Shown here: one piece after another, positions 22,245 through 32,205 of the stretch
How the letters are laid out: the number at the start of each line of letters is the position of its first letter
Position numbering within the stretch: the first letter of the stretch is position 1
Virus record (IMG/VR): IMGVR_UViG_2541047918_000003
Origin: a virus
Taxonomy: Duplodnaviria > Heunggongvirae > Uroviricota > Caudoviricetes
Direction: 5' to 3' (one strand)
DNA: 47,928 nucleotides
Made by a program: the position numbers and the translations under genes
Notes under the pieces: generated by a model
What the model saw: the letters and a program-made list of their open reading frames with translations, nothing else
Databases searched by the model: none
Told to the model about the DNA's origin: nothing

Positions 22245-22784
22245 ATGGATATTAAAGATAAAATCAATACCATTTTGTTATGTGACATTGCCATCCACCT
22301 AGGTATCGAAACTGATATTGATCCACAGCTTGTTAAATATGCTGTGTCATCTGGTAATGATTGGGTTATCAAGGCCGAATATTCACATTTGGATGTTGAC
22401 GAACCAAGTAAAGAAGATCGTGATTTTGTTACTGCTGTCTTGAATATGTATCGCGGACTTTCCAATGCTTTCAGGAAACTTAGTGATGACGAGCAAAAAG
22501 AATTAGTCCGTGACCATCATCTAAAAATACATGATGGGGCAATTCAGCTCCCAGGTTTCGACGGTAATAATGAATGCGATTACTTCAGTATCATTGAGGC
22601 ATATCAGAAAATTGATCGCTTCCCCGAACAGAAACAGCCCATTGCCAATACTCATTCACGTACAGAACATCTCTATAACGCAATGCTTGATGAGTTTAAG
22701 AAAATTGACGCTGTAAATCGAAGCTGGGATTTATCGAAGGAAGAACTGGCATCCATTCTTTCCACAGCTCCACGCAGTTTCTAA
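22245..22784 (+). CDS. YfbU (UPF0304)-like protein, moron
   Basis: 179 aa; C-terminal half follows the YfbU pattern as recalled (GFD ... Y.AML ... LS..E...I); GAGGG RBS; AT-rich; own terminator. Confidence 0.5.
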   Translation: MDIKDKINTILLCDIAIHLGIETDIDPQLVKYAVSSGNDWVIKAEYSHLDVDEPSKEDRDFVTAVLNMYRGLSNAFRKLSDDEQKELVRDHHLKIHDGAIQLPGFDGNNECDYFSIIEAYQKIDRFPEQKQPIANTHSRTEHLYNAMLDEFKKIDAVNRSWDLSKEELASILSTAPRSF

Positions 22785-22789
22785 GTGCT

Positions 22790-23056
22790 TTAGGCGGGTT
22801 TCCAACCCGCCTTATTATGCTCGTATATAGAGAAGGAAGCACCCAAATTAACCAGCGCGGATTTCTTTTCCTCAATACGGCTGTTAAGTTCAGCAACTGC
22901 ATGCGGGCGTATGGCCTCAAGAAAAGCACTATATTGATAGGCAGACTGGATTGTCACACCAAGCCCTGCACCACTTTCCAGTATACCTTTCTGTCGCTGT
23001 AGCTCTTTCATCTCGTTATAGATGTAATGTGCGTTACTTAGGTTTTCTACGTTCAC
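22790..23056 (-). CDS. hypothetical protein (doubtful)
   Basis: 88 aa; GTG start; its 3' end is encoded by the terminator palindrome of the opposite strand. Confidence 0.25.
   Translation of the reverse strand: MNVENLSNAHYIYNEMKELQRQKGILESGAGLGVTIQSAYQYSAFLEAIRPHAVAELNSRIEEKKSALVNLGASFSIYEHNKAGWKPA
22793..22818 (+). terminator. intrinsic terminator of the YfbU-like moron
   Basis: Perfect 8-bp stem GGCGGGTT/AACCCGCC, loop TCCA, then TTATTAT. Confidence 0.6.
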
Positions 23057-23211: not shown

Positions 23212-23679
23212 TTATCTGAGACATTGCTCACGAATGTATAGCTGTGCCCCTTCCAGTTGCTTCTGCATCGTCATCAACCGTTCTCTGAGGGTGAAATAAT
23301 CCCGTTCAGCGGTGTCTGCCAATCTGGGGCTGGTTGCATTATCCACGCTGGTGGGTCCGGTGGCTTCACGCACGGCTGCGGAGCAACTGGCATTGACCCG
23401 CAGGCGCTTACGACCAGCGGCAACATCAGCGCGCAGAGTTTCATTTTCAGCTTTCGCATTGGCTAATTCTCTCGAGTACTTTGCATCGAGCGCAGCAACA
23501 TCACGCTGACGCTGCTGCATGTCAGCGATGGTGGCGGTCAGCTGCTTCAGCTCACTGACTTTTTTATCACGCTGTTCTTTGTAGGTGATGGCGTTATCAC
23601 GGTAATGATTGACCGCCCACGACAGGCAGACGATGATGCAGATAACCAGAGCATAAATAATCGCGGCGACTCTGCTCAC
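23212..23679 (-). CDS. Rz: i-spanin Rz
   Basis: Lambda Rz-like ([25 protein letters not shown]...); GTG start overlapping the endolysin stop. Confidence 0.8.
23274..23459 (-). CDS. Rz1: o-spanin Rz1 lipoprotein, embedded in Rz in another frame
   Basis: 61 aa; lipobox LVVSAC; Pro-rich; lambda Rz1-like; entirely inside Rz. Confidence 0.75.
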
Positions 23680-24209
23680 TGATCTATTCCCCAACAGGCT
23701 AATGCGCTTTCTTGGTCACGACGAATAACCTGTCCATAGCAGTTATTTGAACGTATGCGGCAATCGCGCCCACCATCTTTTATCCACCAGCGAATCGCCT
23801 CGCATGCGCCCTTACGATCACCAGCATTCAGCCGCTTATAAAACGTCGATGGAAAACACTTACCGGGGCCAATGTTATAGGGACAAAATGACGCGATACC
23901 CGCTTTTTGTGGTTCGGTCAGTGGTACTTTAATATTGCGCTCCACCCATGCCAGCGCCTTATCACGCTCAATGGCGTTGACCTGGTCGCATTTTTCCTTC
24001 GACAGTTTCATACCGGGAAAAACGGGTTTTCCATCCACCATCGTGGCACCCCGACAGATGGTCCAGATGCCGGAACCATCGCGGTATGCCGTTGTGTGGT
24101 TACCTTCTTTTTCATCCAGAAACTGGTCGAGAATATCAGGCGCGGGCGCACCGACGGCAATCAGTGCCAGAACGGCAGCCGACAGGCCGTATCTGATTTT
24201 TGCGTTCAT
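23676..24209 (-). CDS. R: endolysin, T4-lysozyme-like with N-terminal SAR domain
   Basis: 177 aa; N-terminal uncharged hydrophobic stretch; catalytic region with E, D and T residues. Confidence 0.8.
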
Positions 24210-24272: not shown

Positions 24273-24623
24273 TTAAGGTTGTGATTCCGGAGGAGTCTTC
24301 AGAGAACCAGTAATTCTTCCTGGTAGCTTTCCTTTGTAGGTTATCCACACATTCTGCGCCTCTAAAATTACGGGGCGCTTTTCCGGCGACTGCTCATCCC
24401 CTTCACATAACCCGGCAGCAACATCCAGGAAGACCTGTCTGATGCTCCTTCTGGCTGCTGCCTCATAAAACCCCAGCGCGGCACCTTCAACACGGTCCAG
24501 CGAGATGTCCAGGTCAAAAATTTCACCGTCAAAGCGTTTTTTGTCCCGTAACGCTAAAGTTACCGTAACTTTATTCTCAAAATTGCGGATCCCTTTCACA
24601 ATCAGTTCATAGTTTTGAGTCAT
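24273..24623 (-). CDS. hypothetical protein inserted between holin and endolysin
   Basis: 116 aa; ATG 4 nt after the holin stop; GGAGAG upstream; no family recognised. Confidence 0.45.
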   Translation of the reverse strand: MTQNYELIVKGIRNFENKVTVTLALRDKKRFDGEIFDLDISLDRVEGAALGFYEAAARRSIRQVFLDVAAGLCEGDEQSPEKRPVILEAQNVWITYKGKLPGRITGSLKTPPESQP

Positions 24624-24627
24624 TGAA

Positions 24628-24843
24628 TTACTCTCCCCGTGCAGCCTTACGACGGTCCTCTCTGATTTTGAAATACAGGTTAGTCAGATATGTCAGGAAG
24701 CCCAGAACCAGACTCCCCAGTACACCAATCGCAGCCCACTGTGACGGACTGACCTGATCAAGCCACTGTAAAAACCAGTAGCCAGCACTGCCTGCGGAGG
24801 TGCCGTAGGCAATGCCCGTTGAAATTTTATCCATGGATTTCAT
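24628..24843 (-). CDS. S: pinholin, phage 21 S-like, dual-start
   Basis: 71 aa [18 protein letters not shown]... matches S21 as recalled; Met1 and Met4 both present; GGAGGT RBS. Confidence 0.85.
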
Positions 24844-25008: not shown

Positions 25009-25014
25009 GCATGT

Positions 25015-25044
25015 AAAAAGGCCCCAACACATGTGCGTGGGGCC
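25015..25044 (-). terminator. minus-strand intrinsic terminator downstream of the tRNA cluster
   Basis: GGCCCCA/TGGGGCC stem followed by T5 on the minus strand. Confidence 0.45.
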
Positions 25045-25283
25045 TGAGAGTATACATGGTTTCAGTCAACTGCATGGTGCCGGGTGCCTCCCGGTGAATT
25101 CAGTACCAGCACCTGAATCCGCGATTATCCCATATACCTACTCGCTGATTGCCCCTCCGCACAGGGGGATTCACCATGCCAGTTTCTTTTAACAAACTCC
25201 CCGCAAAACAGACAACTGTCAACCGTCTGAATTGTGAGACATTTAAAAAAAGGCCCGCAAAAGCGAGCCGGGAAAAATAAGTC

Positions 25284-25360
25284 TGGCGCGTTGTACTGGA
25301 TTCGAACCAGTGACCGATTGCTTAGAAGGCAATTGCTCTGTCCGGTTGAGCTAACAACGC
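25284..25360 (-). tRNA. argO: tRNA-Arg (anticodon UCU)
   Basis: 77 nt; cloverleaf; anticodon loop CTTCTAA; T-arm GGTTCGAATCC; encoded CCA. Confidence 0.85.
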
Positions 25361-25373
25361 AGGGTACAGATAA

Positions 25374-25450
25374 TGGACCGCCATCGAGGACTCGAACCCC
25401 GCGCAACCAGCTTCGAAGGCTGGCGCTCTATCCTGATGAGCTAATGGCGG
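25374..25450 (-). tRNA. argN: tRNA-Arg (anticodon UCG)
   Basis: About 77 nt; anticodon loop CTTCGAA; T-arm TTCGAGT; CCA end; exact 5' end uncertain by 1 nt. Confidence 0.75.
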
Positions 25451-25457
25451 TATGTGA

Positions 25458-25533
25458 TGGTGGCCCTTGCTGGATTTGAACCAGCGACCTGGCGATTATG
25501 AGTCGCTCGCTCTCACCACTGAGCTAAAGGGCC
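25458..25533 (-). tRNA. ileZ: tRNA-Ile2 (anticodon CAU, lysidine type; would also score as Met)
   Basis: 76 nt GGCCCTTTAGCTCAGTGG...CTCATAA...GGTTCAAATCC...GGGCCACCA; close to E. coli ileX as recalled. Confidence 0.85.
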
Positions 25534-31342: not shown

Positions 31343-32205
31343 GGGCGAACCTCCTTGTCAGAACCATTCAGCCTAGAATCAACAAGTGCAGCGCCAAAAA
31401 CAGCATCACCAACACGGTCGTACAGTTTGCTAGCCAGCGGAGATTCAACGGCCTTAAGCATTGGATAAAGCTGGCTTGTCCAGATTTGATGGATTTCACG
31501 CAAATGCAGGTATACGCCTCTGGCGTTTCGTGCGACAGCTGACATATCAGACGCATCGGCACCTGATAAACTCTTCTCCATCAGGTTAAAGGCGTTGATG
31601 TATGCCTCTTTGAACCGGGCAGCACGTTTACCCGTGAAACCCATAGCAAGAAATGCAAAACCGTCTCGTGTGATTTGATAGCAAGGGAGCTTGCGTGTAC
31701 CGCCGTTCGGTTGATTTACCGAAATCGATGTCTCCGCAAAATTGCGGGCACAAAACTCTGGAGAACAATCCAAAATGCGAATCTTTTTCAGAACATCGTC
31801 ATGACGTTTAGAGAAGAAGTCAGCAACAGCCAAAGAAGATGTAACAGCCTGACCATCAACGATGGCAATTTCAGGTTGAGAGAGGGTTGGGAGAGTAGTC
31901 ATAGTGACAGCCCCGGTAGTCAGTTTTTTAGAAAACTCACCACATGGGACGCCAATCACAGAGGTGGTGAGACGTACAGGGTTGGCGTTACCGGAGACTA
32001 CCGAACCCGGCCCGACCGAAGTCGGCCCTGTACGCCCCACCATAATTTGGGCGTAGCAATGCTCATGACACGAAAAAACCGCATGAGCGCGGTTATGCTC
32101 AGTAATCAATTTCAGGACGCCAATCCCGGCACCCGCTTTATAAGGTGCGGAGACAGTGTAACGTCCCGAAATTGCAGAATCAATATTTGGTCTTGAAATG
32201 ATCAT
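31339..32205 (-). CDS. Rha-family phage regulatory protein; start uncertain (alternative ATG at 31902)
   Basis: Central motif AIVDGQAVTSSLAVADFFSKRHDDVLKKIR; no strong RBS at any candidate start. Confidence 0.55.
   Translation of the reverse strand: MIISRPNIDSAISGRYTVSAPYKAGAGIGVLKLITEHNRAHAVFSCHEHCYAQIMVGRTGPTSVGPGSVVSGNANPVRLTTSVIGVPCGEFSKKLTTGAVTMTTLPTLSQPEIAIVDGQAVTSSLAVADFFSKRHDDVLKKIRILDCSPEFCARNFAETSISVNQPNGGTRKLPCYQITRDGFAFLAMGFTGKRAARFKEAYINAFNLMEKSLSGADASDMSAVARNARGVYLHLREIHQIWTSQLYPMLKAVESPLASKLYDRVGDAVFGAALVDSRLNGSDKEVRP

Follow-up and report, generated by a model that had tools for sequence, protein, structure and literature searches.

The closest described relative of the gene studied in this work is ydfR of the Qin prophage of Escherichia coli K-12 (b1555, P76160), which encodes a protein of the DUF1327 family and lies in the order essQ (holin)-ydfR-rrrQ (lysozyme)-rzpQ/rzoQ. 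The gene was still on the list of uncharacterised K-12 genes (the "y-ome") in 2024, and the only experimental information that we found on YdfR comes from a 2026 study of the K-12 protein (PMC13232886). Residues 1-72 of YdfR were recovered three times when RNase G was the bait of a two-hybrid screen. This segment gave signals with each of the three constructs tested, that is, with RNase G and, more strongly, with RNase E in both its full-length form and as residues 1-597; the full-length YdfR fusion gave a signal with RNase E 1-597 only (PMC13232886). FLAG-tagged RNase E 1-598 co-eluted with Strep-tagged YdfR, and DNase-resistant nucleic acid co-purified with the protein, with the authors' caution that a contaminant could explain this RNA (PMC13232886). 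The nuclease-treated repeat of the co-purification was done for YegJ and not for YdfR, and thus the association with RNase E could be RNA-bridged. Overexpression of ydfR did not cause a growth defect such as that observed with YegJ and changed few transcripts, and almost no RNA-seq reads were obtained for the gene under standard growth (PMC13232886).

The window, that is, the whole stretch of 47,928 nucleotides analysed here from a virus of the Caudoviricetes (IMG/VR record IMGVR_UViG_2541047918_000003), has the same gene order as K-12 Qin, and in both cases the holin and ydfR genes are separated by 4 nt. The N-terminal 72 residues of the two YdfR proteins are 81% identical. However, at 103 aa the K-12 protein is shorter than that of the window (116 aa), and its tail (...EKLSEKVESYLQHQYSFKIENPANKHERPHHKYL) is unrelated to the window tail with "KRPVILEAQNVWITYKGKLPGRITGSLKTPP"; the K-12 stop codon overlaps the lysozyme start, whereas the window has a 63-nt spacer at this point; and residue 51 is Glu in K-12 and Gly in the window. 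The order holin-ydfR-lysozyme-Rz is also found in Stx2 phage 86 (where YdfR is gp05), YYZ-2008, mEp460, phages of the vB_EcoS-611R1 type and H-19B, in which it is an unannotated ORF, with identities to the window protein from 99% (vB_EcoS-611R1) down to about 62% (Stx phages). Many of the Stx and lambdoid coliphages differ from the window in that their YdfR proteins are longer fusions (176-268 aa) and in that a convergent small ORF (phrog_2411 or phrog_1853), absent in the window, lies between ydfR and the lysozyme gene.

Identity and setting of the window gene

A first-pass annotation of this DNA had described the ORF as an unknown gene of 116 codons. Its coordinates were exact, and the strand, which had been left unstated, is the minus strand (Table 1). 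The gene is nevertheless already annotated: the protein matches the Pfam family DUF1327 (PF07041) with 141.6 bits (cut-off 25; E 9.2e-42) over positions 1-92 of the 93 of the profile, and it is 100% identical to WP_000193289.1, a "YdfR family protein" in RefSeq from E. coli JNEC-KY173, a strain that carries an identical 1.8-kb cassette. Phage records likewise name the homologue "YdfR family protein". The PHROG matches are phrog_406/2091 (E ~1e-67), both families with unknown function, and there is no NCBIfam model for it. Membership of the family is supported by profile score, domain core and synteny alike. Judged by its sequence, the ORF is ydfR, and its family (DUF1327/YdfR) is a known one among the accessory genes of lambdoid prophages; gene, family and position are already known from RefSeq, Pfam and the K-12 genome.

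Table 1. Positions of ydfR, of the surrounding lysis genes and of other features of the window.
Feature	Position	Strand	Description
ydfR-family CDS (DUF1327)	24273..24623	minus	ATG start, 116 aa + stop
ydfR start codon	24623-24621	minus	ATG
N-terminal domain, aa 1-73	24405..24623	minus	strands 5-14, 18-27, 34-43; helix 50-73
Codon 51 of ydfR	24470-24472	minus	Gly (ALGFYEA)
C-terminal tail, aa 74-116	24276..24404	minus	mosaic middle module SPEKRPVILEAQNVWITYKGKLPGRITGSLKTPP + ending ESQP
ydfR stop codon	24275-24273	minus	
Spacer between holin stop and ydfR ATG	24627-24624	minus	TTCA, 4 nt
Shine-Dalgarno sequence for ydfR	24631..24636	minus	GGAGAG, in last two holin codons, read from sequence
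S21-type class II holin	24628..24843	minus	71 aa, MKSM dual start, PF04971 E 8.6e-36
Non-coding spacer, ydfR to lysozyme ATG	24272-24210	minus	63 nt
R21-like lysozyme, SAR-type N-terminus	23676..24209	minus	177 aa, PF00959 E 1.4e-24, phrog_7 endolysin
Rz spanin	23212..23694	minus	PF03245 E 1.6e-49
Rz1, embedded in Rz	23274..23459	minus	PF06085 E 1.4e-18
88-aa hypothetical gene	22790-23056	minus	
YfbU-family gene	22245-22784	plus	
STnc100 sRNA match	25009-25208	minus	Rfam, 140 bits (gathering score 47)
Three tRNA genes	25284-25533	minus	ARAGORN: Arg-TCT, Arg-TCG, CAT anticodon (Met)
C4 antisense RNA	31960-32047	minus	Rfam, 82 bits
isrK Hfq-binding RNA	32072-32148	minus	Rfam, 59 bits

The neighbours on both sides were read correctly in the first-pass annotation, as an S21-like pinholin and a SAR endolysin. 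The order was read directly from the sequence and the assignments follow from the Pfam matches PF04971 ("Bacteriophage P21 holin S") and PF00959; the holin also matches phrog_20/9876 holin, and the lysozyme has a Gly/Ala-rich N-terminus, as in SAR endolysins. The tight linkage to the holin that the annotation had pointed out, with a start 4 nt after the holin stop codon and a plausible ribosome-binding site, is equally real. The 3' end of the holin gene reads ...CGG GGA GAG TAA on the minus strand. Located 7 nt before the ydfR ATG, GGAGAG is a good Shine-Dalgarno sequence and gives ydfR a strong ribosome-binding site of its own.

No promoter- or terminator-like site was found by a consensus scan of the minus strand from the holin start to the lysozyme gene, a scan by which weak signals could be missed. 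Co-transcription of ydfR with the holin and endolysin genes in a late operon is therefore the simplest reading, as the first-pass annotation had expected from the short gap and the ribosome-binding site. On this strand the cassette is preceded by the gene for a Q-family antiterminator, the three tRNA genes and the STnc100 sRNA-family match, indicating that ydfR belongs to the Q-dependent late operon of a lambdoid prophage, whose order is Q antiterminator, tRNAs, STnc100-like leader, S, ydfR, R and Rz. The spacer between ydfR and the lysozyme gene was considered as a possible regulatory RNA and rejected, since its predicted structure is no better than that of shuffled sequence (z 0.03).

Other features of the window were recorded around the cassette. 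The STnc100 match lies between the tRNA cluster and the holin gene, in the position of the late-operon leader just upstream of the lysis genes. The tRNA genes are found between the Q antiterminator and the lysis cassette; the one with the CAT anticodon, labelled Met by ARAGORN, is annotated as tRNA-Ile in RefSeq, where the anticodon was presumably taken as lysidine-modified. Directly downstream of Rz, the YfbU-family gene and the 88-aa hypothetical gene are further accessory genes, between the lysis cassette and the HNH/terminase genes. At a distance from the cassette are the matches to C4 antisense RNA and to isrK; in the identical region of JNEC-KY173 this area has genes for Rha-family regulatory proteins, and an antisense control of an antirepressor resembling that of P1/P7 is a possibility there by analogy.

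Domain structure and selection

The window YdfR is a protein of 13 kDa with a pI of 6.3. Its highest 19-residue Kyte-Doolittle hydropathy is 0.69, and no membrane segment, signal peptide or hydrophobic N-terminus was found by this measure, which indicates a soluble protein. In the full-length AlphaFold2 model only residues 1-72 are confident and the tail has a pLDDT below 50. With a more diverse alignment, the model of residues 1-76 reached a mean pLDDT of 91.0 and a pTM of 0.77, and consists of three antiparallel strands followed by a long helix (50-73). This N-domain is the sole part common to all members of the family, including stand-alone relatives of 72-76 aa, and has a conserved core, ...EGAxLEFYEA..., in which Y53 and E54 are invariant and are both present in the window protein. 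Residue 51, which opens the helix directly before the F-Y-E part of this core, is a nearly invariant Glu in the family (ALEFYEA) but Gly in the window allele. Identical DNA is carried by 7 of the 85 loci examined, the window included; Gly51 is thus an allele in circulation rather than an error of sequencing.

These 85 copies are those of the window, of K-12, of three further loci from E. coli or phages and of 80 IMG/VR contigs. The ORF is intact in all of them, and the product has 116 aa in 77, 114 aa in four, 268 aa in two, and 183 and 103 aa in one each. Values of dN/dS (Nei-Gojobori) were 0.27-0.45. For the N-domain, the comparison of the window with K-12 gave a dN/dS of 0.27 at a dS of 0.37, and that with Stx2 phage 86 gave 0.31 at a dS of 1.35; the pooled pN/pS was 0.39 for residues 1-113. 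Together with the DUF1327 match, the intact copies and the dN/dS values establish that ydfR is a real gene and not a chance reading frame. The purifying selection on it, as estimated from these alignments, is moderate, as is typical for accessory phage genes.

The tail appears to have a different history from the N-domain. Its module is poorly modelled, yet it is conserved and under purifying selection (pooled pN/pS 0.33 for residues 76-113). The family is modular: the N-domain is followed by the K-12 tail, by the "KRPIILEAQNVWITYKGKLPGRITGSLKTPP" module as in the window, or by this module and a further 60-150 residues, which gives the forms of 176, 183, 196 and 268 aa. Between the window and Stx2 phage 86, dS is 0.19 in the tail module as against 1.35 in the N-domain; that is, the window-type module follows a divergent N-domain in phage 86, and in the protein P0154 it follows an unrelated N-terminal part. 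This contrast in dS, together with P0154, indicates at the sequence level a recombination breakpoint near aa 72-76.

Two other arrangements of the domain were seen. Two proteins of 170-176 aa (P0189 and P0192) have two DUF1327 N-domains in tandem, and from these forms the stand-alone domain may be a dimer. Seven proteins of 139-187 aa (P0015, P0032, P0039, P0081, P0092, P0110 and P0118) combine PF04971 with DUF1327 as apparent holin-YdfR fusions. Since the 4 nt and the stop codon that separate the two genes do not keep the frame, these fusions are probably the result of indels or assembly errors.

The S-R junction and the distant relatives

The first-pass annotation had considered the gene an unusual insertion into a canonical holin-endolysin-spanin cassette. 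This does not hold, since the same holin-ydfR-lysozyme-Rz order is present in K-12 Qin, in Stx phages including H-19B and phage 86 and in at least a third of the complete E. coli genomes, and the arrangement is ordinary for E. coli. Of 5426 complete E. coli genomes, 4104 contain DNA homologous to ydfR, in up to 8 copies each, and in 1903 of these the coverage of ydfR was at least 80%. At least 80% of the 1.8-kb cassette was present in 2233 of the 5426 genomes. Among phages, 101 records have a YdfR homologue, many of them Stx1 and Stx2 phages, compared with 438 records that have an S21-type holin, and in the S-R gap of the classical H-19B sequence the homologue is present without an annotation. 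The family as a whole is restricted to prophages of the Enterobacterales. A profile search of 1.84 billion representative proteins gave only 91 matches, which include Escherichia/Shigella proteins, stand-alone N-domains of 72-76 aa and the two tandem-duplicated forms, with Yersinia, Serratia, Sodalis and Pantoea as the named organisms of the distant relatives.

The S-R junction itself is a mosaic, of which five variants were seen. In DLP12-type cassettes there is no insert and essD abuts rrrD; in K-12, ydfR overlaps R; in the window, ydfR is followed by the 63-nt spacer; in C43(DE3) and another E. coli genome, ydfR is accompanied by a convergent 90-aa ORF (phrog_2411) that overlaps its 3' end; and in Stx2 phage 86, a 268-aa YdfR fusion is accompanied by a convergent 104-aa ORF (phrog_1853). 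Aligned to the C43(DE3)-type variant, the window lacks ~273 bp carrying the convergent ORF, with homologous flanks on both sides. In all the copies from E. coli and E. coli phages whose context was examined (a handful of loci and the annotations of hits), ydfR lies between an S21-type holin and a lysozyme gene.

The distant members of the family are found elsewhere. These stand-alone relatives of 72-94 aa come from Serratia, Sodalis, Pantoea and uncultured enterobacterial prophages, and their N-domains are conserved across genera down to about 25-30% identity. In Serratia the gene is flanked by those for the tail assembly chaperone and the tape measure, in Sodalis as well as in two uncultured contigs by gpM and gpL, and in Pantoea by the Q antiterminator and a holin from another family (PF05106); in one uncultured contig it lies just upstream of gpJ. 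Thus the family occupies four other late-operon junctions besides S-R, and the distant copies are all oriented with the late genes.

Very often, a small convergent ORF (58-104 aa) follows the DUF1327 gene within ~15-30 nt or overlaps its 3' end. Such partners were observed in Serratia, Pantoea, uncultured prophages, E. coli C43(DE3) and Stx2 phage 86, always on the opposite strand (loci L083, 4244-4519; L087, 4240-4545; L089, 4247-4486; L091, 4245-4526; L092, 4269-4445; L094, 2579-2851; L096, 3317-3631). They belong to several unrelated PHROGs (10490, 25324, 2411 and 1853), all of unknown function, and no Pfam or PADLOC match was found for them. The ydfR gene of the window has no such partner.

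Possible roles in the late operon

According to these data, YdfR is probably a passenger module of late operons, and neither a core component nor a dedicated regulator of the lysis machinery. The DLP12-type cassettes show that the gene is dispensable for the architecture of the cassette, and their lack of ydfR, the mosaic S-R junction and the distant relatives outside lysis cassettes together favour a passenger. Moreover, a protein acting directly on S21 or R21 is not expected at tail-gene sites, so the distant contexts argue in the same direction. The position after the holin in E. coli would reflect inheritance with the cassette and would not require any action on the holin or the endolysin. 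The first-pass annotation had left the choice between a lysis regulator and an unrelated passenger, of which the latter fits the evidence better and the former less well; it had also held that absence of the gene from closely related prophages would count against its proposal, and in one sense this absence is what is seen, in the DLP12-type holin genes that abut the lysozyme gene. Identity as ydfR and a passenger role in late operons, taken together, are the overall explanation that we prefer, with a confidence that is real but still modest.

A rival proposal is that YdfR is cargo of the moron type, often with a small convergent partner, which would contribute to host fitness, superinfection exclusion or defence and have no role in the late programme. 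The family is indeed found at classical moron sites (Q-S, S-R, chaperone-tape measure and M-L) and only in Enterobacterales prophages, its presence varies at late-gene junctions as in morons (five S-R variants and four other junctions), and an opposite-strand small ORF directly follows the gene or overlaps its 3' end in five of six distant contexts and in two E. coli variants. However, morons have a promoter and terminator of their own, and for the window copy these were rejected on the negative consensus scan; this copy also has no convergent partner, and K-12 ydfR gives almost no RNA-seq reads in standard growth (PMC13232886). The partners come from unrelated families (phrog_10490, 25324, 2411 and 1853), and a comparison of YdfR, its long forms and three convergent partners with the PADLOC defence models gave no match at E up to 1, so that a known defence system was rejected. 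We consider cargo of this kind unlikely.

Another rival explanation is a role in lysis timing. YdfR would then be a cytoplasmic regulator specific to pinholin/SAR-endolysin cassettes, placed between S and R for stoichiometry; it might, for example, bind to S21 at its charged C-terminus in the cytoplasm, or delay the release of the SAR endolysin. Consistent with this, the gap to the holin is only 4 nt, the overlap of the K-12 ydfR stop codon with the lysozyme start suggests translational coupling, and every copy from E. coli and its phages seen in context lies between an S21-type holin and a lysozyme gene. This linkage does not extend to the family, however, as its distant members lie among tail genes, far from any lysis gene, and the DLP12-type holin-lysozyme pair works without ydfR. 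Several known regulators of holins and endolysins, namely the S21 71 antiholin, T4 RI, P1 LydB and Mu releasin, are membrane or periplasmic proteins, a location that is a feature of dedicated lysis regulators and that YdfR, which has neither a transmembrane segment nor a signal sequence, does not share. The deletion of ydfR does appear in a screen for envelope leakiness, the CPRG screen of 2014, in whose raw supplementary hit lists it is found; the gene is absent from the main text, where the hit is not validated, and the phenotype could be a polar effect of the resistance cassette just upstream of the lysozyme gene. It was set aside as evidence of YdfR function. A cassette-specific role within E. 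coli is possible, while lysis timing as the function of YdfR appears to us improbable, a little more so than cargo.

It is very unlikely that ydfR is without present function, as a remnant in decay that has merely travelled with the recombining lysis module: the C-terminal tail is very variable (products of 103, 114, 116, 176, 183, 196 and 268 aa), dN/dS is only moderately below 1 and some cassettes lack the gene, but all 85 copies are intact, the N-domain keeps the same fold-defining residues at dN/dS ~0.3 with dS up to 1.35, and the domain is kept across genera to about 25-30% identity.

For a passenger of late operons, the experiments with the K-12 protein suggest a mode of action. Late in infection, the N-domain would act in the cytoplasm by binding RNA, the N-terminal catalytic half of the host's RNase E, or both, and this binding would alter the processing or decay of particular transcripts. 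The window protein is identical to the RNase E-associating K-12 segment at 58 of 72 residues (81%); on the other side, it has Gly51 at the position of the nearly invariant Glu. The RNase E and RNA data refer to the K-12 protein, outside the phage lytic cycle, and the window allele is compared with it by sequence identity. A late cytoplasmic protein that binds RNA, RNase E or both is thus our leading, though tentative, proposal for the mechanism, one that we consider somewhat less likely to hold than not.

The fold of the N-domain was compared with known structures and domains. Searches of BFVD gave nothing reaching E 1e-3, and in the PDB a single-sequence search gave no match and a profile search only eL18, which at E 0.42 is not significant. 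When 20 diverse members were compared with Pfam at E up to 10, DUF1327 was recovered in all 20, and the remaining matches were isolated, weak and to unrelated families, with none to dsrm. The double-stranded RNA-binding domain (PF00035, alpha-beta-beta-beta-alpha) was considered as a candidate and rejected, because the first helix of this domain is missing in YdfR and there was no dsrm match at E 10 and no PDB match; the window allele has ARRSIRQ at the position of the dsRBD motif.

In a broader form of the same proposal, the DUF1327 N-domain would be a compact RNA/RNase E-binding module that lambdoid phages of enterobacteria carry in their late operons, often with a small antisense-encoded partner, and that retunes host RNase E in the late phase. 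Possible targets would be the very long late transcript, the embedded tRNAs and the S/R message, and through the stability of the latter such retuning could affect the timing of lysis. Small phage proteins that act on host RNase E are known, namely phiKZ Dip, T4 Srd and T7 gp0.7. Dip binds the C-terminal scaffold of RNase E and not its catalytic domain. The likeness of YdfR to these three proteins is one of functional analogy only, with no sequence similarity, and in contrast to the scaffold binding of Dip, K-12 YdfR co-purified with the catalytic half (PMC13232886). The idea of a general retuning module is speculative and in our view unlikely; if true, the DUF1327 N-domain would be a widespread counterpart, in temperate phages, of the RNase E modulators of virulent phages.

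Stx phages carry ydfR, and homologous DNA is found in about three quarters of the complete E. coli genomes; of the prophage genes of E. coli that are still uncharacterised, it is one of the commonest. To what was known of it, this work adds the variants of the S-R junction, the relatives at other late-operon junctions, the recurrent convergent small ORF and a high-confidence model of the domain. Should the reported association with RNase E and RNA also apply when prophages are induced, ydfR would represent a factor of temperate phages that acts on the decay of host RNA and is very widespread.
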